DNA of 13,814 bases from a virus. Lineage: Duplodnaviria > Heunggongvirae > Uroviricota > Caudoviricetes. The translations under genes and the position numbers were made by a program. Each line of letters starts with the position of its first letter. Position 1 is the stretch's first letter. Below the pieces are notes generated by a model. The model ran no database searches and was not told the origin of the DNA. It saw nothing but the letters and a program-made list of their open reading frames with translations. The stretch spans positions 1-13,814 of the IMG/VR virus record IMGVR_UViG_2778261465_000003. The stretch is one strand, 5' to 3'. Positions 1-13,814 of the stretch are shown here, one piece after another.

Positions 1-1074
1 TCATTTGTCGATTTCAATTTTGTCCCATTCCCGTCCACGGCTGTCCCTATACCGCGCCGCCATTGAATCTGATTTATGCCCGAGAAGACGTTGAGCAAAC
101 TTATCGCCAATCTGGTTCCGGTATAGCCTCGCTGACAGGCTACGCAGTTCATGGAATGTTGGCGGGTTTCCATCAAATGAGAGGCCAGATGCATTTCTCG
201 CCTTTGTAAAATACTTTGATACTGTTTTCGGGGAAAGCGGATCGTGATGCTTTGATGCGATTATAGTTTCACTGCTGCTGGCCTCCCTGCATTTCTGTAG
301 TGTATCAGCCAATGAGATATTGAGCGCGTCAATCGTTAGCGTTAGCGGAATGGCGAGTTTAGCCCCTGTTTTACTCTGTTTAATGTGAAGATGGTTGTCG
401 TTTATGTCTGACCATTTCATTCTGCACAAATCGCCGACTCTCTGCCCTGTAACGACGGCCAAATCCATCGCCAGCCTTAGCCAGATAGGGAGAGGTTCGG
501 CTGCATGGTAAATCTCGACATACTCATTAGCTGTCAGCCTTGAGCGCCTTACTTCTGACTTTGCTGTACGGGTTGCTGTTACCGGATTCGTTGCCACATG
601 CCCCTCGGCTATTGCTTCACGAAAAACGTCAACAAGGGTTGACCTGATTAATTTTGCGGAAGCTGCTTTACCTTCTGCTACGTAGGTGTTTAGCATTGCT
701 GCCACTTCTTTCGTTGATATGTCAGTGAGCGGTTTGTCCGGCAATTTTCTTCGGATTGCCCTGATTTTGCTGGCGTAGTCGAGTAGAGTTTTCGGCCTGA
801 TCCCCCTTTCGGTGAGGATTGTTTCATATCGGTCAAGCCACACATGAAGAGTGATTGCGTCACCGCCTTTAATTCTGTCTATTAGTGATTTGCGTCCGCT
901 GTCTGAGAGTAATTCAATATTGGCCTGTATTGCTTCAGTGATTGCTATCCTCCTGTCTCGGCCTAAACCAAACTCTTTACCCGTCCTTGGGTCCCTGTAG
1001 CAGTAATATCCATTGTTTCTTATATAAAGGTTAGGGGGTAAATCCCGGCGCTCATGACTTCGCCTTCTTCCCAT
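1..1074 (-). CDS. int: Phage integrase, tyrosine recombinase (lambda Int-like)
   Basis: 357-aa ORF, colinear with lambda Int as recalled: N-terminal arm-binding region MGRRRSHERRDLPPNLYIRNNGYYCYRDPRTGKEF and C-terminal catalytic region (HELRSLSARLY, LLGHKSD, ARYRD). Overlaps upstream xis by 23 nt as in lambda. Confidence 0.95.
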   Translation of the reverse strand: MGRRRSHERRDLPPNLYIRNNGYYCYRDPRTGKEFGLGRDRRIAITEAIQANIELLSDSGRKSLIDRIKGGDAITLHVWLDRYETILTERGIRPKTLLDYASKIRAIRRKLPDKPLTDISTKEVAAMLNTYVAEGKAASAKLIRSTLVDVFREAIAEGHVATNPVTATRTAKSEVRRSRLTANEYVEIYHAAEPLPIWLRLAMDLAVVTGQRVGDLCRMKWSDINDNHLHIKQSKTGAKLAIPLTLTIDALNISLADTLQKCREASSSETIIASKHHDPLSPKTVSKYFTKARNASGLSFDGNPPTFHELRSLSARLYRNQIGDKFAQRLLGHKSDSMAARYRDSRGREWDKIEIDK

Positions 1075-1270
1075 TTCTGATCCTCTTCAAAAGGCTACCT
1101 GTTACTGGTCGATTTAAGTCAACCTTTACCGCTGATTCGTGGAACAGATACTCTCTTCCATCCTTAACCGGAGGAGGGAATATCCTGCATTCGCGCACCC
1201 ATCGACGAACTGTTTCAAGGCTTCTTGGGCGTCGCTGGCGAGCGTTCCACTCCTGAAGTGTCAAGTACAT
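1052..1270 (-). CDS. xis: Excisionase (lambda Xis-like)
   Basis: Internal Met of track ORF 1052..1360 gives a 72-aa protein MYLTLQEWNARQRRPRSLETVRRWVRECRIFPPPVKDGREYLFHESAVKVDLNRPVTG, near-identical to lambda Xis as recalled. The 30 codons upstream in the track ORF are not Xis-like. Confidence 0.9.
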   Translation of the reverse strand: MYLTLQEWNARQRRPRSLETVRRWVRECRIFPPPVKDGREYLFHESAVKVDLNRPVTGSLLKRIRNGKKAKS

Positions 1271-1387
1271 CGCAAAGTCTCCGCAATTACACGCAAGAAA
1301 AAGCCGCATTGATGCGGCGATGGTAGGTCTGGATATCATTGAGCAATGAACAGGCCTCATCGAGTGTGAGGCGGTGTTATTTCATGG

Positions 1388-1648
1388 TTAGTCCTTGCGT
1401 AGCTCGCTGATTCTTCTGTAAGTCTCTGGTGCTTTGTTTCCGTGTATCTTCATTTCAGACTTCAACAGAGCAACGAGGGAATCCCATTCGTTGAGGATTC
1501 CTTTGAATGCCGGAACGCGCTTTGCAACCTTGTTGAATGAATCTCTGATTTCTGGAATCTGCTCAACAAGTGCAACGCATCGTCTGAAATCGGCTGCGTC
1601 ATGGGGAGCGCCGAAGTGATGACCATAGATATTCTTTTCAGTCCACAT
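1388..1648 (-). CDS. Hypothetical protein (86 aa), early-left accessory gene
   Basis: Track ORF with protein-like composition, immediately upstream of xis on the same strand. The overlapping alternative frame 1462..1758 begins inside a terminator hairpin. No family recognised. Confidence 0.5.
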   Translation of the reverse strand: MWTEKNIYGHHFGAPHDAADFRRCVALVEQIPEIRDSFNKVAKRVPAFKGILNEWDSLVALLKSEMKIHGNKAPETYRRISELRKD

Positions 1649-1744
1649 GCGATTGAGGCAAGAGTTGCGCTACTGATGCCGACATCGCCAGTCGATTGCC
1701 ATTTCAAAACCTTCATAGCCAAATCTGACATTTCTTGTCTCCAA

Positions 1745-1766
1745 TAAAAAACCGCCATCAGGCGGC
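1745..1766 (-). terminator. Intrinsic terminator (minus strand)
   Basis: Minus-strand reading GCCGCC-TGAT-GGCGGT (6-bp stem including one G.U) followed by six U; overlaps the stop codon of the 55-aa ORF. Confidence 0.5.
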
Positions 1767-1925
1767 TTGGTGTTCTTTCAGTTCTTCAATTCGAATATTG
1801 GTTACGTCTGCATGTGCTATCTGCGCCCATAGCATCCAGTGGTCATAGCAGTCATTGATGTTCTCTGCTTCGATAACTCTGTTGAATGGTTCTCCATTCC
1901 ATTCACCTGTGACTCGGAAGTGCAT
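1758..1925 (-). CDS. Small hypothetical protein (55 aa)
   Basis: Below the track threshold; translated by hand as MHFRVTGEWNGEPFNRVIEAENINDCYDHWMLWAQIAHADVTNIRIEELKEHQAA. GGAG Shine-Dalgarno 7 nt upstream of ATG; flanked by terminator hairpins on both sides. Confidence 0.35.
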   Translation of the reverse strand: MHFRVTGEWNGEPFNRVIEAENINDCYDHWMLWAQIAHADVTNIRIEELKEHQAA

Positions 1926-1936
1926 TTATCATCTCC

Positions 1937-1963
1937 ATAAAACAAAACTCGCCGTAGCGAGTT
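1937..1963 (-). terminator. Intrinsic terminator (minus strand) downstream of the DUF2513-like gene
   Basis: Perfect 7-bp stem AACTCGC / GCGAGTT with loop CGTA, followed on the minus strand by UUGUUUUAU. Confidence 0.45.
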
Positions 1964-2008
1964 CAGATATAATTTCCACCAAAGGCAGTAGTTGCTTGAT
2001 GCTAAGAA

Positions 2009-2437
2009 TTATTCAATATCTATTCCTGTAATATCTTTTATCTTTTTCCTTGCAAAGCCTTTTGCTAGTGATTTTGAAACACTCATAAGTGTACTAATTC
2101 CCTCATCCTTAAAGTTTGTTTTTATAGCTTGCCAGACATCCTTTTGACGTAAGTCAGCAATAAAATCATGCCCTCTTGCTGTCAACCTCAGTGGTACTTC
2201 GATCCAACTATATCCAACACCTTCCCCTAACGCTTTGGACATTATATGACCGAACCCAGGTTTTCCATCAACCCTGACTATTAATTCGTAGTCACATAAT
2301 AATCGCATATGGAAAATAAAATCTTGGTCATATCTATTAAAACCATTATCCTCTAGTTCACTAAGCATCGTGTCAGGGCCACGAGTTTTTTCGAATGCGA
2401 TAAGTAGATCTTTTAGATATTGCTGGTCTAATTTCAT
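2009..2437 (-). CDS. Hypothetical protein, possibly DUF2513-like (142 aa), AT-rich moron
   Basis: Track ORF with markedly lower GC than its neighbours (roughly mid-30s percent by eye). N-terminus MKLDQQYLKDLLIAFEK...YDQDFIFHMRLLCDYELIV resembles the DUF2513 pattern as recalled; weak assignment. Confidence 0.55.
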   Translation of the reverse strand: MKLDQQYLKDLLIAFEKTRGPDTMLSELEDNGFNRYDQDFIFHMRLLCDYELIVRVDGKPGFGHIMSKALGEGVGYSWIEVPLRLTARGHDFIADLRQKDVWQAIKTNFKDEGISTLMSVSKSLAKGFARKKIKDITGIDIE

Positions 2438-2465
2438 TGCCGCCTCCGTGACATGTCACAGAGAT

Positions 2466-2804
2466 TTATATCATTAATTTTGTTTCGTGCCAGCCTTTGG
2501 TCACCCAGCATTGTGAGTCACCATTACACGGGCATGAATTAACAGGAACTCTCTCGCCGCACTTACCGCAACGTTTTCTGCTGATCGATTTTATACGCCA
2601 GCGCACACGTGCATCATCCTGGCGGCTCAGTAACGCGATGTACTCACCAAACTCGCAAGGCGCACGCCTGAAGCGACGCGTGGCACAGTTACGCTCCAGC
2701 ATTTCAATTTCCTGAGCATCAAGTACAAGCTCCAGCTTACGCATACCGGATGATGCTTGCTTGGCTCTCTGATCGGCTTTGTGCTCTGTTGCTGATTTAG
2801 CCAT
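2466..2804 (-). CDS. Hypothetical Cys-rich protein (112 aa) with putative C-terminal zinc ribbon
   Basis: Track ORF; AGGAAA Shine-Dalgarno about 9 nt upstream of ATG at 2804. C-terminal CGKCGERVPVNSCPCNGDSQC (CxxC...CxC) and an N-terminal region with a possible ribbon-helix-helix-like beta strand (KLELVL). Confidence 0.5.
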   Translation of the reverse strand: MAKSATEHKADQRAKQASSGMRKLELVLDAQEIEMLERNCATRRFRRAPCEFGEYIALLSRQDDARVRWRIKSISRKRCGKCGERVPVNSCPCNGDSQCWVTKGWHETKLMI

Positions 2805-2848
2805 TCTGCTTTTCCTGCATCAGGAGAAAGACAATCATGGCGGCGCGG

Positions 2849-2944
2849 ATACTTCCGGTATCTTTTTACGCGATATTCCCCTTCAATGGCACATACAAAA
2901 AGAGAGCCATCCACAGGAGTGATTGAGGAATCGACAACCAGCAA
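2849..2944 (-). pseudogene. Relic of an S24 peptidase / repressor (UmuD, LexA, cI-type) C-terminal domain
   Basis: First about 32 codons of track ORF 2627..2944 (TTG start, stop immediately upstream) read LLVVDSSITPVDGSLFVCAIEGEYRVKRYRKY, resembling the UmuD core ([29 protein letters not shown]) and the lambda cI C-terminal domain as recalled. The rest of that ORF is out-of-frame overlap with the neighbouring gene. Confidence 0.4.
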
Positions 2945-2997
2945 CGCTTAATTATCTATAGTGTCGTATTTGCTTCATAAAATATGGCGAATAACAC

Positions 2998-3033
2998 AAA
3001 GCCCGCAGCAGCTCATTGTGCGGGCTTTTCTTA
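2998..3033. terminator. GC-rich hairpin, candidate bidirectional intrinsic terminator
   Basis: Perfect 10-bp inverted repeat AAAGCCCGCA / TGCGGGCTTT with an 11-nt loop, followed by TTTTCTT on the plus strand and a U-rich tract on the minus strand; sits between two minus-strand genes. Confidence 0.5.
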
Positions 3034-3097
3034 TACCTACTTCCTAGAGATAATTCTATGGAGGCATTAAATCAATACTGTCATTGGTAATATCATA

Positions 3098-3712
3098 TTA
3101 TCTAAAAGTCTTTCCACTTTTAACATCTAGGTATATTCTGTTCGACAACGTCATTCCTCCGCAATATGTGAAATAGATGTTTTCACCCTTATTGCTTGAT
3201 GCCATCCACCCTCCGATTTCCTTAAAATCGCTTTCCGTGCAGACCCCTTCATTTATTAACTTCCTAGCTGCCGAAGAAAACTCTTTTTTGTATATACGGT
3301 AGTCATCAGATCCTTTGATTAAAGTATCATCTCCGCTCGCATTTTCAGCAGGATCTGATGGCCTTTCACTGCTAAGATCACTAAGTTTAACCCATTCTGA
3401 AAACTTGCCATTAACGATTCCATTTTTTCTTGTGCAGGATTTATTACCTTCTTTAATATATTCGCTTTCCCCTCCAACACATGAGGCTGAATATGGCTCA
3501 GTTATACGAACCCATTCACCTTTTTTTTCTAGAAAATCTACGCCTTCCCTGAAAAATAGTTTCCCAGCCACTCCACATTTACTTGAAGGGCAGGTATGTC
3601 TTTCCGTTCGATCAACAACAACCCATAGTTTTGATTCATTTTTTGCCATTGCCGATGGTATTTGAGATGAGACAATTAACGTAAGCCCTAAAATTAGTAT
3701 TGATTTTTTCAT
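3098..3712 (-). CDS. Secreted Cys-rich protein of unknown function (204 aa, Sec signal peptide), AT-rich moron
   Basis: N-terminus MKKSILILGLTLIVSSQIPSAMA has a basic n-region, hydrophobic core and AxA cleavage motif. Six Cys in the mature part, consistent with periplasmic disulfides. Low GC; terminator hairpin downstream. Confidence 0.7.
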   Translation of the reverse strand: MKKSILILGLTLIVSSQIPSAMAKNESKLWVVVDRTERHTCPSSKCGVAGKLFFREGVDFLEKKGEWVRITEPYSASCVGGESEYIKEGNKSCTRKNGIVNGKFSEWVKLSDLSSERPSDPAENASGDDTLIKGSDDYRIYKKEFSSAARKLINEGVCTESDFKEIGGWMASSNKGENIYFTYCGGMTLSNRIYLDVKSGKTFR

Positions 3713-4010
3713 TGTAATTTCCTTTTACTTTTTACAAAGCGTTTAATCATGGCTGATTATCTCTAAGCGTAGTAACAGCCTTGTGCGAAACATGTTACCA
3801 AATCGCCATTTCAGTGTATCCGCAGTTAGGCTGCCACTTCAAGGATTCCTAATTACATGGTACGTAAGCGTAAAATCCCGTTGGTTGGCTGGTAATAACT
3901 CTGATCAAATCTCCCTTGTCTTTTGCTCTTACGTATGCAGCTCTTGTGTATTCAACCCAGGCCTCCAGTTCAGCAATACGCTTACTTCCATCCGAGATAA
4001 CACCTTCTAC

Positions 4011-4262
4011 TCACGCTGCTCGTTGAGTTTTGATTTTTGCTGTCTCCAGCTCAACACGCAGTTTCCCCACCGTTAGCGCAATATCCTCGTTCTCCTGGTC
4101 GCGGCGTTTGATGTATTGCTGGTTTCTTTCCCGTTCATCCAGCAGTGTCAGCACAATCGATGGTGTTACCAGCTCATGGAAAAGGTCCGCGTCAAATCCC
4201 CAGTTGTCATGCATTGCCTGCTCTGCCGCTTCACGCAGTGCCTGAGAGTGAATTACGCTCAC
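4011..4262 (-). CDS. Hypothetical protein (83 aa, GTG start), possibly truncated by an in-frame TGA
   Basis: Track ORF overlapping the upstream TraR-like gene by 4 nt (translational coupling). The same frame stays open for about 53 codons beyond the TGA, and a codon-matched antisense ORF (3783..4076) spans the junction. Confidence 0.45.
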   Translation of the reverse strand: MSVIHSQALREAAEQAMHDNWGFDADLFHELVTPSIVLTLLDERERNQQYIKRRDQENEDIALTVGKLRVELETAKIKTQRAA

Positions 4263-4480
4263 TTCGAACCTCTCTGTTTACTGATAAGCTCCAGATCTTC
4301 CTGGCAACTTGCACAAGTCCGACAACCCTGAACGGCCAGGCGTCTTCGCTCATCTATGGGATCGCCACACTCACAACAATGAGTGGCAGATACAGCCTGG
4401 TGGTTCAGGCGGCGCATTTTTATTGCTGTGTTGCGCTGTAATTCTTCAATTTCTGATGCTGAATCAATGATGTCTGCCAT
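4259..4480 (-). CDS. TraR/DksA family C4-type zinc-finger protein (73 aa)
   Basis: Motif CCECGDPIDERRRLAVQGCRTCASCQ (CxxC-x17-CxxC) near the C-terminus, typical of phage TraR/DksA-like proteins. Confidence 0.75.
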   Translation of the reverse strand: MADIIDSASEIEELQRNTAIKMRRLNHQAVSATHCCECGDPIDERRRLAVQGCRTCASCQEDLELISKQRGSK

Positions 4481-4534
4481 CTTCCATTAATCCCTGAATT
4501 GTTGGTTAATACGCTTGAGGATGAATGCGAACAA

Positions 4535-4556
4535 TAAAAAAGGAGCCTGTAGCTCC
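4535..4556 (-). terminator. Intrinsic terminator (minus strand)
   Basis: Minus-strand stem GGAGC / GCTCC with a 5-nt loop, followed by six U; 23 nt downstream of the gene ending at 4579. Confidence 0.5.
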
Positions 4557-4578
4557 CTGATGATTTTGCTTTTCATGT

Positions 4579-4794
4579 TCACCGTTCCTTAAAGACGCCG
4601 TTTAACATGCCGATCGCCAGGCTTAAATGAGTCGGTGTGAATCCCATCAGCGTTACCGTTTCGCGGTGCTTCTTTAGTACGCTACGGCAAATGTCATCGA
4701 CGTTTTTATCCGGAAACTGCTGTCTGGCTTTTTTGATTTCAGAATTAGCCTGACGGGCAATACTGCGAAGGGCGTTTTCCTGCTGATGTGTCAT
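4579..4794 (-). CDS. Hypothetical protein (71 aa from internal ATG; track ORF extends to 4860)
   Basis: Track ORF 4579..4860. The first 22 codons (MHFSGSGLHILCAYACRHGTCS) have no Shine-Dalgarno and odd composition, so the start at MTHQQENALRSIARQ... is preferred. Confidence 0.45.
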   Translation of the reverse strand: MTHQQENALRSIARQANSEIKKARQQFPDKNVDDICRSVLKKHRETVTLMGFTPTHLSLAIGMLNGVFKER

Positions 4795-4870
4795 TGAACA
4801 AGTCCCATGTCGGCAAGCATAAGCACACAGAATATGAAGCCCGCTGCCAGAAAAATGCATTCAGTGGTTG

Positions 4871-5062
4871 TCATACCTGGTCTCTCTCATCTGCTTCTGC
4901 TTTCGCCACCATCATTTCCAGCTTTTGTGAAAGGGATGCGGCTAACGTATGAAATTCTTCGTCTGTTTCTACTGGTATTGGCACAAACCTGACTCCAATT
5001 TGAGCGAGGCTATGTGCCATCTCAATGCTCGTTCTTAACTCAACAGGAGATGCTTTGTGCAT
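4871..5062 (-). CDS. Hypothetical protein (63 aa)
   Basis: Track ORF with a strong GGGGAG Shine-Dalgarno 4-5 nt upstream of ATG at 5062; acidic C-terminus. Confidence 0.5.
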   Translation of the reverse strand: MHKASPVELRTSIEMAHSLAQIGVRFVPIPVETDEEFHTLAASLSQKLEMMVAKAEADERDQV

Positions 5063-5176
5063 ACAGCTCCCCGTTTATTATTTATCTCCTCAGCCAGCCG
5101 CTGTGCTTTCAGGGGATTTCGGGTAACAGAAAGGCCGGGAAATACCCAGCCTCGCTTTGTAACGGAGTAGACGAAA

Positions 5177-5533
5177 GTGATCGCGCCTAACGGGGGCGGC
5201 GATTGGCAGGTTAAACCTGAACGTCGCAAGGCAGAACGAATCGACTACGAATCCTTCCTGAACGCCTACAACACCGAAGTCGGTGACAGACTTCCACACG
5301 CTGTTGCGGTCAACGAGAAACGAAAACGCCGCCTGAAGAAAATCATTCCGCAACTGAAAACGCCAAACGTGGACGGTTTCAGAGCGTATGTCAGGGCGTT
5401 TGTGCATCAGGCCAAGCCGTTTTACTTCGGAGACAACGACACGGGCTGGACGGCCGATTTTGATTACCTGCTGAGGGATGACTCGTTAACGGGGGTAACC
5501 GTACAGGTTTTACCTCGTCACGTGGCTTTCTGA
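5177..5533 (+). CDS. Possible C-terminal remnant of a phage replication-module protein (118 aa, GTG start)
   Basis: Protein-like ORF (...[25 protein letters not shown]) that begins directly after an in-frame stop with only GTG available. Tentative resemblance to the conserved C-terminal domain of phage replication proteins. The antisense ORFs 5090..5407 and 5035..5229 look like artefacts. Confidence 0.35.
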
Positions 5534-5885
5534 TGGCTGAAAGACGCTTTACCAGCTCGTCCATCGCCTGACTCGATGTATCGATGGTTCCGTTCTGAAT
5601 TGGTTCACGCATTTCATCCATGATTTCCAGCACCAGGCGGCGGTGATAGTTATCCGCGACCATTCCGGCATATCCCTTCAGGTTTGCGGCACTCGGGCAG
5701 TTTTTGCTGGTCATCAGGATTGACGTGAAATGCTCCTCTCCGCACGCCTCGGCAACCATCAGCGCGTCGATTAGGTTTCTGTTTCTCGCCTGCTTGCGGA
5801 TAACCTCGAAGGCTTTCCGGTAGAGCGGAATTGAAAACGCTTCCGGCTCCAGCGTTGCCAGAACGTCGCTGGCGGTTGGTGTTAA
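5500..5885 (-). pseudogene. DnaB-like replicative helicase N-terminal domain fragment, inverted relative to the nin/late genes
   Basis: Minus-strand translation ...[73 protein letters not shown]... is colinear with the E. coli DnaB N-terminal domain as recalled (...FYTRPHRHIF...LSKNTPSAANISAYADIVRERAVVREMI...). No ATPase domain is present; similarity is lost at about 5885. Confidence 0.55.
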
Positions 5886-6349
5886 AGGCAGCAGAGAAGA
5901 AACGACGACGAGAGGAGCAGAAACAGAAAGATAAACTTAAGATTCGAAAACTCGCCTTAAAGCCCCGCAGTTACTGGATTAAACAAGCCCAACAAGCCGT
6001 AAACGCCTTCATCAGAGAAAGAGACCGCGACTTACCATGTATCTCGTGCGGAACGCTCACGTCTGCTCAGTGGGATGCCGGGCATTACCGGACAACTGCT
6101 GCGGCGCCTCAACTCCGATTTGATGAACGCAATATTCACAAGCAATGCGTGGTGTGCAACCAGCACAAAAGCGGAAATCTCGTTCCGTATCGCGTCGAAC
6201 TGATTAACCGCATCGGGCAGGAAGCAGTAGACGAAATCGAATCAAACCATAACCGCCATCGCTGGACTGTCGAAGAGTGCAGGGCCATCAAGGCGGAGTA
6301 TCAACAGAAACTTAAAAAACTGCGAAACAGCAGAAGTGAGGCTGCATGA
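5831..6349 (+). CDS. ninG: NinG (Rap)-like recombination protein, N-terminus replaced or truncated
   Basis: From [56 protein letters not shown]... to the end it is colinear with lambda NinG as recalled. The first 18 residues ([21 protein letters not shown] start) are unrelated and lambda's N-terminal Cys-rich region is absent. Confidence 0.8.
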
Positions 6350-7587: not shown

Positions 7588-7662
7588 GGGTCAGTCGTAT
7601 AAAGGTCATTACGGAAGGCTGTTAACCTTCTTATCGTGGTTCGAGTCCACGCTGTCCCGCCA
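7588..7662 (+). tRNA. tRNA-Asn (anticodon GUU)-like, one acceptor-stem mismatch
   Basis: Hand-folded cloverleaf: acceptor GGGTCAG / CTGTCCC (T.T at pair 4-69), D-loop AAAGGTCA, anticodon stem GAAGG / CCTTC, loop CTGTTAA (anticodon GTT), T-arm CGTGG-TTCGAGT-CCACG, discriminator G, encoded CCA. Anticodon and T loops match E. coli tRNA-Asn as recalled. Confidence 0.6.
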
Positions 7663-7667
7663 AATAT

Positions 7668-7743
7668 GCTGGTTTAGCTCCAATGGTAGAGCGGTCGCCT
7701 TGTAAGCGAATGGGTAGCGGTTCAAGTCCGTTAACCAGCACCA
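7668..7743 (+). tRNA. tRNA-Thr (anticodon UGU)-like
   Basis: Hand-folded cloverleaf: perfect 7-bp acceptor GCTGGTT / AACCAGC, D-arm GCTC-CAATGGTA-GAGC, anticodon stem GTCGC / GCGAA (27-43 mismatch), loop CTTGTAA (anticodon TGT), T-arm AGCGG-TTCAAGT-CCGTT, discriminator A, encoded CCA. Confidence 0.7.
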
Positions 7744-8574: not shown

Positions 8575-8969
8575 AGATCCACTACAAGATAATTATCTTC
8601 GCGTTCGCGTTCGCATTGAGCGTACTGGGCGTCATCGTTTGGTCAGCAAGCCATTATCACGATAAGTATCAGGCGGAACGGCTACGCGCAGATGCTGCCG
8701 AGCAGAACGCCAACGCCGCCGAAGCGATCACCGCCAACGTCATTCGGTCTGTGAACATCATCAACGCCATTGCAGAGGCCAACCAGGATGCAAAGAACCA
8801 GATCACACTGGAGTCACAGGGAGCCCAAGCAGATATCAAAGTGGCTATTGAGAATGATGACTGCGCTCATCGGCCTGTGCCTCCTGCAACTGCTCACCGG
8901 CTGCGGCAATTCGCGGACAGTTTACGTACCGGTATCGGTAGTGCCTCTACCGGCAAACCTGACAGCTGA
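8571..8969 (+). CDS. Rz: i-spanin (Rz-like inner-membrane spanin)
   Basis: N-terminal transmembrane segment ([20 protein letters not shown]) then an Ala/Gln/Glu-rich periplasmic region; directly follows the endolysin; GGGGGAAG Shine-Dalgarno before ATG 8571 (track ORF starts at 8559). Confidence 0.8.
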
Positions 8970-9111
8970 GACGCAACAGCCAGCCATTCCCGAACCGCTG
9001 ACCTATGGGGCCAGTCTGGAGCTGAATGTTAGCCTGCTATCGGCGCTGGGTCAGTGCAACATCGATAAGGCTAGTATCAGGAAGATTGAAGAGTCTCGGA
9101 CCTCTCTGTAG
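8854..9111 (+). CDS. Rz1: o-spanin (Rz1-like outer-membrane lipoprotein), overlapped architecture
   Basis: +1 frame starting inside Rz: [17 protein letters not shown] with lipobox LTGC, then a Pro-rich mature region ([20 protein letters not shown]). Runs 142 nt past the Rz stop. Confidence 0.75.
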   Translation: MMTALIGLCLLQLLTGCGNSRTVYVPVSVVPLPANLTAETQQPAIPEPLTYGASLELNVSLLSALGQCNIDKASIRKIEESRTSL

Positions 9112-9147
9112 AAGACTATTTTGCTGCCATGAAGAAGCTTTATATCT

Positions 9148-9177
9148 TTGGTCAATACATCGAACAGATCAGATAAT
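9148..9177 (+). promoter_or_regulatory. Candidate sigma70 promoter for the protease gene
   Basis: TTGGTC, 18-bp spacer, GATAAT in the AT-rich spacer after Rz1, about 55 nt upstream of the protease ATG. Confidence 0.35.
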
Positions 9178-9231
9178 TCTTATGTGATTGATGCTATATT
9201 TATCCCCTATTTAAACATGGGAGTTACGGAT

Positions 9232-10032
9232 ATGTCTGTCAGTCAAGATATTTATAAGTCTACACTTAGAGTTGAAAGTGATACTCCAGAGGGAACCTCG
9301 GTAGGAACTGCTTTCTGGTTTTGCTTTGTTATGGAAGGTGGTGAAGATATTGTTCCACTCTTGGTAACTAATAAGCATGTTGTTAACGGGGCAACAGAAG
9401 TTAGACTACGTCTAAACATTACCGACAGCGCAAATCCTGAGATAAAATTTTATAACCTAACAATTTCAGAGGGGGCAAATGCGTTCATTATGCACCCTGA
9501 TGATAATGTTGATATATGCATATTGCCTATCGCTGGATTGCTGAATGAGATGGAGAAAAGTGGCATTAGCCCAGAACTCTTCTTTTTCACAGATCGTCAG
9601 ATGCGTGGTAACAATTACATTACTCCTGTCGAAGATGTTTACATGACAGGATATCCAAATGGATTATGGGATTCTGTAAACAATAGGCCTGTTACCAGGA
9701 AAGGCATCACAGCATCATCACCTATGGAAAACTGGAAGGGTAAGCCTGAATTCCTCATTGATATGGCTTGTTTCGGTGGTTCTAGCGGTTCTCCCGTTTA
9801 TATAATGAACCAAGGCTCATATGCTACTAATGATGGTATTGCTATGGGGGAGAGATTAATTTTCCTTGGGTTGTTGTATGCAGGGCCAGTAACGAATGTT
9901 AGCGGGAATATTGAAATTATTGACGTACCAACAGTCGCTACACCAGTTGTGCGTTCTGAAATTACAATGAATCTCGGATTTGTTATTAAAGCAGAGAAGC
10001 TAAATGACTTTAAGCCTCTCTTGGGGATTTAA
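9232..10032 (+). CDS. Cytoplasmic trypsin-like serine protease (chymotrypsin fold, Trypsin_2-like), AT-rich accessory gene
   Basis: 266 aa from ATG 9232 (GGGAG Shine-Dalgarno 8 nt upstream; track ORF starts at a TTG at 9148). Catalytic triad in canonical order and context: His in LLVTNKHVV, Asp in DDNVDICILPIAG, Ser in GGSSGSPVY. No signal peptide or transmembrane segment. GC clearly lower than the flanking phage genes. Confidence 0.75.
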   Translation: MSVSQDIYKSTLRVESDTPEGTSVGTAFWFCFVMEGGEDIVPLLVTNKHVVNGATEVRLRLNITDSANPEIKFYNLTISEGANAFIMHPDDNVDICILPIAGLLNEMEKSGISPELFFFTDRQMRGNNYITPVEDVYMTGYPNGLWDSVNNRPVTRKGITASSPMENWKGKPEFLIDMACFGGSSGSPVYIMNQGSYATNDGIAMGERLIFLGLLYAGPVTNVSGNIEIIDVPTVATPVVRSEITMNLGFVIKAEKLNDFKPLLGI

Positions 10033-10037
10033 CACAA

Positions 10038-10059
10038 GCCGCCTCCGGACGGTTTTTTT
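10038..10059 (+). terminator. Possible weak intrinsic terminator after the protease gene
   Basis: Imperfect GC hairpin (CCGCC..GGACGG) followed by seven T, beginning 6 nt after the protease stop. Confidence 0.4.
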
Positions 10060-10071
10060 ATTGCTATTACA

Positions 10072-10097
10072 AAAGCCACTCCATGCCGAGTGGCTTT
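10072..10097. repeat. Perfect 10-bp inverted repeat (stem-loop)
   Basis: AAAGCCACTC-catgcc-GAGTGGCTTT. Could be a minus-strand terminator (short U tract follows on that strand) or a protein or RNA structural site. Confidence 0.5.
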
Positions 10098-10165
10098 GAT
10101 AATGGCTTATACCCTACACGGGATAACTTAACTGATATCCCAACAAGCGGATAAAGAGGTTCTCA

Positions 10166-10677: not shown

Positions 10678-11229
10678 ATGGCACTCACCGACAAACAAGA
10701 AATGTTCTGTCGCGAGTACCTCATCGATTTAAACGCCACACAAGCGGCTATTCGGGCGGGGTACAGCGCAAAGACAGCCAACCGTACTGCGTCCGAAAAC
10801 ATGTCAAAACCTGACATCAAGTTAAGAATCGCTGAACTGAAAGCGCAACGCAATGATCTTGTTGGTATTAATGCAGAATATGTACTTAATCGCCTTCTTG
10901 AAATCGACCAGATGGATGTGCTTGACATTCTCCTGCAAAACGGTGAGCTAAAACCCATTAAAGACTGGCCTAAGGTATGGCGCACAACGCTATCAGGAAT
11001 GGATGTCGTGGAGATGGTATCCGCAGATAGCGCCGCACTTCTGAAGAAAATCAAATGGCCTGATAAGGTTAAAAATCTTGAGTTGCTTGGGCGTCATGTT
11101 TCTGTTCAGGCGTTTAAAGACAATGTCAAAAATGAAGTGACTGGCGCTGATGGAGGACCAGTCAGAACAGAAATTACCAACTTAACGCCGGAGCAGGCTG
11201 CAGAGGCGTATAGAAAAATGATGGGCTAA
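10678..11229 (+). CDS. Terminase small subunit (Terminase_2-like, N-terminal helix-turn-helix)
   Basis: 183 aa; N-terminal [57 protein letters not shown] is characteristic of phage TerS; immediately followed by the large subunit. Confidence 0.85.
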
Positions 11230-11231
11230 GT

Positions 11232-12194
11232 ATGCCGTTACCATTCCCCTTCGATTTTAAACATCCTGATTACCAGATGGTTTTTGAATGGCGGATGGAA
11301 CGCCTACAGCGCATTCGCCAGAATCCTGAAATATTGCCCGTGTTGAAGCAGTTTTACCGAACCAATCCGGCTCAGTTCATCATCGACTGGGGCATGACAA
11401 CGGACCCGCGTAATATTGATTATGGCCTGCCGGTAACCATTCCGTTTTTACTCTTCCCTAAGCAGGAGGAGTGGATCCACTGGATTATGGAACGCTGGAG
11501 CAATCGGGAGAATGGTATTACCGAAAAATCCCGTGAAATGGGGCTCAGTTGGACCGCGATCGGACTGGCCTGCTCGCTTTGTCTCTTCAACAAAGAAATG
11601 GTTATCGGTTTCGGCTCCCGTAAAGAGGAATACGTCGACAGCACCGGTGACCCGAAAGCATTGTTCTGGAAGGCGCGCAAGTTCGTGGAAACACTACCTG
11701 TAGAGTTTCGCGGTTCGTGGAGCGAGAAGAAGCACGCGCCATATATGCGTGTTGAGTTTCCTGAAACTGGTGCCGTTATCAAAGGCGAGGCTGGCGATAA
11801 TATTGGTCGTGGTGACCGTACCACGCTTTATCTGGTTGATGAGGCTGCATTCCTTCAGCGTCCTCTGCTGATTGATGCGGCGTTGTCACAAACGACGCGT
11901 TGCCGTATTGACCTGAGTTCAGTTAACGGCATGGCGAACCCGTTCGCTCAGAAGCGTCATGGCGGGAAGATACCGGTATTCACATTCCACTGGCGGGATG
12001 ATCCTCGCAAGGATGAAGAGTGGTATCGCAGGGAATGCGAGAAAATCGATAATCCGGTGGTGGTGGCACAGGAACTTGATCTGAACTACAGCGCATCAGC
12101 GGAAGGCGTCCTGATTCCATCCGAATGGGTACAGGCTGCCGTTGATGCGCATATCAAACTGGGTATGGTGCTGTTTCTAATGTTACCGGTGTAA
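11232..12194 (+). CDS. Terminase large subunit, ATPase domain only (C-terminal nuclease domain missing)
   Basis: 320 aa with a Walker-B-like [10 protein letters not shown] and TerL-like N-terminal half, but far shorter than an intact TerL of this type, which is usually well over 400 aa. The ORF ends in a short non-homologous tail where another frame takes over. Confidence 0.8.
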
Positions 12195-12724
12195 CCCGCC
12201 ACAAACTCTATGAAAACGATAATGGTTCGGAGGACGGTAACGGGTTACCGCCACACTCTGTTGCTGTAATTGTGGATGGCGGTGATGTGACGGATATTGC
12301 TCAGGCTATCAGAGGGAATAAAGGCCAGGGAACAGCCACTCACGGTACAACATCCGTTACGGTTCCGGATAAATACGGCAATCCCCATGTAATCAAATTT
12401 TCGCGTTCCAGTGATGTGCCTGTTTATGCCCGGATTAAATTAAAAGTTTTTACGGGTTATACCTCACAGATAGGGCAGCAGATCCAGCAGGCTATTTCCG
12501 ACTATATCAATAGTCTGATGATTGGTGATTCGGTCCTTTTAAGTCGCATTTACTCACCGGCGAATCTTGGCGTGGTGAGTGGCGGGAATGCACGCTATTA
12601 CGATATTCAGGAACTGACGATTGGGAAATCCCCGGGGGCTTTGTCGTCATCAAACATTGATATCAGATACAACGAATCTGCGTCCTGTACCCCGGAAAAT
12701 ATCGTTATAACGGTGGAGTCATGA
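12146..12724 (+). pseudogene. Baseplate-J-like protein, C-terminal fragment (e14 JayE-like), no proper start
   Basis: Frame open from 12146, overlapping the TerL tail; only a GTG at 12272 is available. Tentatively resembles the C-terminal part of baseplate J family proteins; ATGA-coupled to the downstream tail gene. Confidence 0.5.
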
Positions 12725-13401
12725 GCAAATACACCGAACTAATCACGAACTACCACGCCACCAAACCTAAATTTCTTGCACATGTTGATCTGATGACCCG
12801 GCCGCTTATTGATGTTGCGGCTGCCACCAGAGGGCTGATTACTGCATTTGATATTGACTCTGCGGTTGGTGTGCAACTTGACATTCTGGGATTGTGGATC
12901 GGACGTAGCCGTGTTGTCAGCCAGCCTATTTCAGGTGTCTATTTCAGCTGGGATACCGACGGGCTTGGATATGATCAGGGTGTATGGCAGGGGCCATACG
13001 ATCCTGATTCCGGATACATGTACCTCAGCGATGAAACTTATCGTGTCATCCTTAAAGCGAAGATTGCGATTAATAACTGGGACGGACGGAATGATTCGCT
13101 TCCGGCAATTCTTGACGCGGCAACAGCAGGATCCGGACTGCGAATGCAGATAGTCGATAACCAGGACATGACGATATCGGTCTGGGTCTTTCCTGATACT
13201 GATATTTCAGATGTATCGCGTGAGTTAATTGCGGCAATTAAACAGGGGTATCTCACAGTAAAAGCCGCCGGGGTATGGGCGGGTGGCATTGAAACACCTT
13301 CGGTGGAAACCCCATCGGAAGGCTCAAAATTTTTTGGTTTTGATATGGATAACGAATTCATCAGTGGTTTTGATGTAGGAGCATGGGGAGTATTACTCTG
13401 A
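12721..13401 (+). CDS. Phage tail/baseplate protein, DUF2313 (YmfQ / Mu gp48-like)
   Basis: 226 aa; resembles E. coli e14 YmfQ-type tail proteins as recalled; translationally coupled on both sides. Confidence 0.65.
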
Positions 13402-13814
13402 TGGCGAAAAATGACTTTAAAGCGTTTGCAACGGATCGAAATGCCAATGTTATATCGCAGGAGAAATGGGAAGCGTTGCCCGCGCTTTTATCTGGATTTA
13501 CAGCAGGGAAAGCCTCCAGTGCGCAAGTCAATAAGGTTATTCGGCAGGCCAGCTTTATTGCTGCAGCTCTGGCCCAGTTTGTAAGTGATAAAACGCAACG
13601 GGATGTGCTTGATAATGGTGATCTGCCCGGTTTTGTTGAATTGCTGGGATCGGGGTTTGCTGTTGAATACCTGAGCCGCAAGAATCCGTTTGGCGATATC
13701 AAATCGGATGGCACGGTGAAAACGGCTCTCGAAAACCTTGGTTTGGGAGAAGCGGCTAAAAGGAATGTAGGGACAGGGGCGAATCAGATACCTGATATGG
13801 GTAGCTTCACGCTT
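13401..13814 (+). CDS. Side tail fibre protein, N-terminal part (continues beyond the window)
   Basis: ATG at 13401 overlapping the upstream stop, GGGGAG Shine-Dalgarno; [60 protein letters not shown]... is typical of a tail-fibre N-terminal anchor region. Open to the window end. Confidence 0.7.

Follow-up and report, generated by a model that had tools for sequence, protein, structure and literature searches.

The window analysed here, a single stretch of 13,814 nt, begins with a tyrosine integrase gene (1-1074, minus strand), from which the gene order runs through the early region, the nin region, Q, the lysis genes and terS, and it stops 414 nt into a tail-fibre gene. An exact-protein lookup in the assemblies index recorded the 320-aa product of the truncated large terminase gene on one contig, NNVC01000022.1 of assembly GCA_002485495.1 (69,915 bp), and this contig breaks off within the tail-fibre gene, at what is position 13814 of the window. 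The late part of the window is laid out as follows:

10678-11229, plus strand: terS, small terminase subunit, intact, 183 aa (Pfam Terminase_2, E = 3e-39), with the length and position seen in intact prophages.
11232-12194, plus strand: terL', truncated large terminase gene, 320 aa; codons 1-311 native (the ATPase half), then nine aberrant codons (12165-12191) and a stop (12192-12194).
12165-12166, no strand: deletion joint, the dinucleotide AT, common to terL nt 934-935 and baseplate-J nt 641-642 in ungapped and megablast alignments.
12167-12724, plus strand: 3' fragment of the baseplate J/gp47 gene, codons 215-399 and stop (100% identity; phrog_6, E = 2e-24).
12721-13401, plus strand: baseplate wedge protein DUF2612/Phage_Wedge1, intact, 226 aa (PF11041, E = 4e-47; protein identical to WP_000049950.1).
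13401-13814, plus strand: 5' part of a tail-fibre gene (gp53-like/side tail fibre), cut by the contig end (phrog_11303, E = 2e-65).

According to the ORF list and the source annotation, the 13,814-nt window contains no gene for the portal, the capsid or the tail shaft, as the preliminary description of this DNA had stated.

Several other genes upstream of this region deserve mention. The interval that separates the Q antiterminator from the holin gene holds two tRNA genes, tRNA-Asn(GTT) and tRNA-Thr(TGT) (7588-7743, plus strand), a placement shared with the intact relatives. Between the lysis cassette and terS, a 294-aa trypsin-like protease (9148-10032, plus strand; Pfam Trypsin_2, E = 2e-10) matches the PADLOC candidate defence model PDC-S45 with E = 1e-100. 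The stretch in which it is embedded (8575-10107) is absent from the WAT, ERP001 and FDAARGOS_1287 prophages, which suggests that the protease gene is a moron or cargo. On the minus strand, a 204-aa ORF (3098-3712) keeps its position in WAT, where it is annotated as hypothetical (WP_000748282.1), and has no match in Pfam or PADLOC.

The first 311 residues of the terL' product are the same, residue for residue, as in the TerL (540 aa) encoded by E. coli WAT and 23CRST009, and the remaining nine (312-320, MVLFLMLPV) are encoded by baseplate-J DNA read in the wrong frame, so that the ORF indeed stops at 320 aa with a short aberrant tail, as had been noted earlier. The product matches PHROGs family phrog_2 (“terminase large subunit”, E = 5e-19) over aa 33-306, and this match, together with the identity to annotated TerL, identifies an N-terminal ATPase domain of the TerL type (Sf6 gp2/P22 gp2-type); Pfam assigned no family to terL', nor to the full-length 540-aa TerL. 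By eye, the motif KSREMGLS resembles a deviant Walker A of the lambda gpA kind, and LYLVDEA is a putative Walker B. The terminase nuclease domains in the PDB entries 8dkr, 4idh (Sf6 gp2) and 5c12 (P22 gp2) align to aa 293-522 of the intact TerL. The native part of terL' ends at residue 311, ahead of the conserved acidic motif AMDVADEG (residues ~321-328), and therefore comprises the ATPase half only and lacks the C-terminal RNase-H-like nuclease domain. Judged by its predicted product, terL' is a truncated gene that cannot specify a functional terminase.

The earlier reading would have been undermined if a 320-aa TerL were full length in a functional phage family. The gene measures 1623 nt (540 aa) in Salmonella phage SEN34, in the vB_EcoM phages and in all intact prophages examined, and 320 aa is therefore not the natural full length in the SEN34-like family; in SEN34 (genus Brunovirus) and Escherichia phage vB_EcoM-611R5, this 540-aa TerL is followed by the portal gene. 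The 90% protein cluster to which the 320-aa product belongs consists mostly of TerL pieces cut by contig ends, and a naturally short TerL was rejected, as no member of the cluster supports one. The 49-nt stretch 12146-12194 is open in both the terL' and the baseplate-J frames; we also considered a TerL'-baseplate-J fusion made by -1 frameshifting and rejected it, since no slippery heptamer of the form X XXY YYZ could be seen by eye in this stretch.

The second frame was described beforehand as open from 12146, devoid of a real start and continuing into a baseplate-J-like C-terminal fragment, and this description is borne out in each respect. The frame is preceded by a stop at 12143-12145 and ends with the terminal stop at 12722-12724; it contains no ATG, and its earliest possible starts are GTG codons at 12272 and 12287, the latter being the start called in the source assembly. 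From codon 215 (window position 12167) onwards, its translation agrees at every position with residues 215-399 of the baseplate J/gp47 protein (399 aa) of FDAARGOS_1287 and 23CRST009, and the PHROGs family that it matches, phrog_6, is described as “baseplate wedge subunit”. Pfam Baseplate_J (PF04865) was found in the intact 399-aa homologue (aa 85-342, E = 1e-16), and a Pfam scan of the fragment alone stayed below detection. With aa 215-399 only and no ATG, the fragment holds neither a complete Baseplate_J domain nor a start of its own, and is a gene fragment.

The two genes that follow had been called a DUF2313 tail protein and a tail fibre. The second identification stands: the start of the fibre gene matches a PHROGs family annotated as “tail fiber protein”, and its relatives are annotated as gp53-like domain proteins. 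The first does not: aa 4-185 of the 226-aa protein cover positions 1-177 of the 181 in the PF11041 (DUF2612/Phage_Wedge1) profile with a score of 161 bits, against a cut-off of 23.5, and this is the sole Pfam family found there. Assignment to DUF2313 (PF10076; e14 YmfQ/Mu gp48-like) was rejected, as Pfam gives DUF2612 only and BLASTP against YmfQ yields E = 5. The sequence of the wedge protein is identical to that in three intact prophages.

Pairwise alignment with intact TerL and baseplate J homologues, suggested beforehand as the way to find the exact junction and any microhomology, placed the joint at 12165/12166. The position is base-exact, being defined by two abutting ungapped alignments of 99.9% nucleotide identity to the two intact loci, and falls at the upper edge of the range of about 12150 to 12165 that had been proposed. 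Identity to terL extends to window position 12166 (…AAACTGGGTAT), and identity to baseplate J begins at 12165 (ATGGTGCTG…); the pieces obtained with megablast stop at 12166 and start at 12158/12165. Thus, the junction links nt 935 of terL with nt 641 of baseplate J and contains no inserted foreign DNA, and the parental sequences have exactly the 2-nt microhomology “AT” in common, within an imperfect resemblance of ACTGGGTAT to ACTGGAT (7 of 9). Such an arrangement is that of illegitimate recombination at the level of microhomology, for which 0-10 nt of shared sequence and no long repeat, IS or att-like site are expected. An IS element, an att site or a long repeat was rejected as the cause of the deletion, as there is no insertion at the joint and the two sides share 2 nt. 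Under random joining, a microhomology of 2 nt or more is expected with P = 0.16, and therefore says little about mechanism.

Three complete E. coli genomes, FDAARGOS_1287, WAT and 23CRST009, contain both flanks of the joint in one prophage and on one strand, and all three prophages have a terL of 1623 nt (540 aa) and a baseplate-J gene of 1200 nt (399 aa). The breakpoints lie 16,777 bp apart in 23CRST009, 17,212 bp in FDAARGOS_1287 and 17,217 bp in WAT, in each case on the same strand of a single prophage, in agreement with the single large deletion of morphogenetic genes that the preliminary description had postulated. In these genomes, the missing segment carries 21-23 annotated genes, from the portal gene through the last baseplate gene before J. 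Among them are genes for the portal (DUF1073; Pfam Phage_portal_3), head morphogenesis, DUF2213, Gp24, DUF2184 and neck proteins, followed by those for DUF3383, DUF3277, a chaperone, a lytic transglycosylase, baseplate and spike. Overall, a precise two-ended deletion with minimal homology, and without a mobile element or an att-like site, is shown.

The same prophage has undergone a second rearrangement, which removed its immunity and replication region and had been missed in the preliminary description. Comparison of the early region with the WAT and ERP001 prophages resolves it into four pieces:

1-5189: int through the DUF1317 gene, 99.96% identical to WAT.
5186-5496: 311 bp from the interior of a replication (O-type) gene.
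5496-5885: 390 bp from a DnaB-type helicase gene, in inverted orientation.
5884-6349: ninG, 3' part (Pfam NinG match beginning at profile position 43).

Adjacent pieces overlap by 4 nt (CCTA, at the end of the DUF1317 gene and the start of the replication piece), 1 nt (replication/helicase) and 2 nt (helicase/ninG). Relative to WAT and ERP001, the lost genes are exo, bet, gam, kil, cIII, the N-region, cI, cro, cII, most replication genes and ninB-F. Late transcription dependent on Q is probably silent, because pL, pR, cro and N are gone. The inverted fragment fits with template switching or the rejoining of multiple breaks, and if joining were random, the microhomologies at the four joints of the prophage would add up to 9 nt or more with P = 0.007.

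We sought the joint in other genomes. Among 5,426 complete E. coli genomes, megablast detected the left part (terS-terL) in 403, the right part in 2,056 and the joint-spanning sequence in none. It was likewise absent from GTDB species representatives (searched with 41-nt and 26-nt patterns), from JGI metagenome contigs (searched with a joint-spanning pattern) and from the phage records searched; a literature search yielded no mention of the source accession prefix. The joint is therefore seen in one draft assembly; the contig ends 1.65 kb further on, before attR, the invertase and the fibre-assembly genes would be reached, and this counts against the reading as a deletion. Confinement to a single draft near a contig end, and to no other entry in the databases searched, would be expected if the join were a chimera of assembly or library preparation and the strain actually carried an intact prophage. 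Graph and overlap assemblers join sequences via long shared k-mers or overlaps. A misassembly is unlikely here because the two sides share 2 nt, unlike a repeat-induced misjoin; moreover, the three further illegitimate joints in the same prophage are consistent with real decay, and the contig break within the fibre gene is of the usual repeat-induced kind, that stretch being present in more than 2,000 genomes and in up to five places per genome. We consider an artefact quite unlikely.

The flanks of the joint show very little divergence from intact prophages. Nucleotides 1-935 of terL differ by 1 nt from 23CRST009 and likewise by 1 nt from WAT. On the right side of the joint, a single mismatch to 23CRST009 occurs in 1,648 nt, and the right flank of WAT is 98.1% identical. 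In total, the flanks differ by 2 nt in 2,583 from the closest intact prophage, and the proteins TerL(1-311), baseplate-J(215-399) and the wedge protein are identical to their intact versions, so that the deletion must be very recent on the strength of this divergence. The left-hand region of the window from int and xis through the left part of the early region (1-5189) is closest to the prophage that in E. coli WAT is integrated between torS and torT, and the late region is closest to the prophage of 23CRST009, which occupies a different chromosomal site; the parent was therefore a mosaic of modules.

This mosaic origin bears on whether the terL and J sides might have come from two separate SEN34-like prophages, brought together by a larger chromosomal deletion or inversion. 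The right-hand module occurs in up to five copies per E. coli genome, the early region and the late flanks have their nearest relatives (99.96% and 1 nt each, respectively) in prophages at different sites, WAT is as close as 23CRST009 on terL but only 98.1% identical on the right flank, and the contig stops before attR, all of which would be compatible with such an exchange. Nevertheless, order and orientation are exactly those produced by a simple internal deletion in any of the three intact prophages, the one late region of 23CRST009 matches either flank with no more than 1 nt of difference, and mosaicism of early and late modules is normal in SEN34-like phages. A rearrangement between prophages is accordingly judged very improbable, and a deletion internal to one prophage remains the preferred reading.

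A bolder scenario would assign all four joints (12165/6, 5186-5189, 5496 and 5884-5885) to one catastrophic episode of break-and-rejoin or template switching, possibly triggered by an abortive induction that only multiply-deleted elements survived, after which terS, the ATPase-only terL' and the PDC-S45 gene might together form a module that defends against phages with related packaging machines; we regard this combination as highly speculative and give it little credence.

That an ATPase-only TerL (with TerS), the wedge and fibre genes, or both are retained under selection, for instance as a dominant-negative inhibitor of packaging by related phages or as a fibre donor for recombination, seems the least credible proposal of all, for although the ATPase half is preserved in full up to residue 311, terS and the wedge and fibre ORFs are intact and a candidate defence gene, PDC-S45, lies just upstream, the joint is found in a single genome at 2 nt from an intact prophage, where intactness reflects recency and cannot be taken as a sign of purifying selection, pR, cro and N are gone with late transcription dependent on Q probably off, and the terminase fragment matches no PADLOC model. 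Indeed, with a deletion so recent, the intact state of the wedge and fibre genes is uninformative on selection and gives no evidence of domestication, and a dN/dS analysis of the retained genes would be powerless because they hold one substitution in 1,648 nt.

The element had also been likened to e14. The e14 element of E. coli K-12 is the textbook analogue of such a remnant. Our comparison is based on its RefSeq annotation, in which YmfN is a “chimeric replication protein/phage terminase” and the portal fragment beeE overlaps the baseplate-J pseudogene jayE, which is followed by ymfQ (DUF2313, wedge-type), stfP, tfa genes and the invertase pinE. Common to e14 and the window is an internal deletion that took the head and tail-shaft genes and left a 3' fragment of baseplate J with the fibre module. 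They differ in that the left partner at the baseplate-J joint is the portal gene in e14 and terL in the window, in that the wedge protein is DUF2313 (YmfQ) in the former and DUF2612 in the latter, and in that e14 is fixed in K-12, whereas the joint in the window is known from one draft genome. In pairwise BLASTP comparisons, TerL', the baseplate-J fragment and the DUF2612 protein had no significant similarity to YmfN, JayE and YmfQ (E = 0.1 to 5), and the structural remnants thus show none of the sequence relatedness that would place the element in the e14 lineage. The likeness therefore holds for architecture and fails for sequence: as far as these comparisons go, “e14-like” is a term for the manner of decay and for organisation only, not for lineage.

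The closer kin are the intact SEN34-like (Brunovirus-type) elements, namely the prophages of 23CRST009, WAT and FDAARGOS_1287, Salmonella phage SEN34, and the vB_EcoM phages 611R5 and 683R1. The window resembles them at 97.5-99.9% nucleotide identity in terS, terL nt 1-935, J from nt 643, the wedge gene and the fibre gene; unlike the window, they have a 540-aa TerL, a 399-aa J, 21-23 morphogenetic genes between the two, and complete immunity and replication modules.

Taken together, the joint very probably marks where a SEN34-like (Brunovirus-type) myovirus prophage of E. coli, now a silent cryptic remnant, recently underwent one spontaneous deletion. The parent would have been a SEN34-like myovirus prophage with a lambdoid early region, located beside the torS end of the torS-torT site. 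RecA-independent illegitimate joining of its terL to its baseplate-J gene, perhaps by microhomology-assisted end joining or template switching, would have cost it ~16.8-17.2 kb with the portal, head, neck, sheath, tube, tape-measure and most baseplate genes. What was left would be a terL' encoding the ATPase half without the nuclease domain and a piece of baseplate J without a proper start codon. As a consequence, the element would be unable to package DNA or to build particles, because the nuclease domain, the portal, the capsid and the tail shaft are all missing; the earlier expectation that it could not form particles is upheld on these grounds. The wedge and fibre genes may be intact simply since the deletion stopped short of them and there has been too little time for decay. 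Together with this deletion, the second rearrangement, by removing pL/pR, cI, cro, N, O and the helicase gene, would make the element a silent cryptic remnant, its lack of expression being predicted from the loss of these functions.

A review (PMC6379469) describes defective prophages as having a strong tendency to deletions, inversions and insertions, and the window likewise shows a deletion and a deletion-inversion complex. It does not differ in kind from grounded or defective prophages in general, and stands out as an unusually fresh case whose undeleted parent is essentially available. What we describe is a real deletion scar and an instance of ordinary, strain-specific decay in a doubly damaged prophage. 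For annotation, the ORFs 11232-12194 and 12272-12724 should be labelled as pseudogenes, being fragments of terL and baseplate J, respectively, and the element as a defective prophage unable to form particles. Beyond annotation, where its importance is small, it offers a clean, base-resolved snapshot of the onset of decay, in which large illegitimate deletions at microhomologies of 1-4 nt, one of them with an inverted fragment, precede any point-mutational decay; with 2 differences in 2.6 kb, the sequence of the undeleted parent is in essence known.
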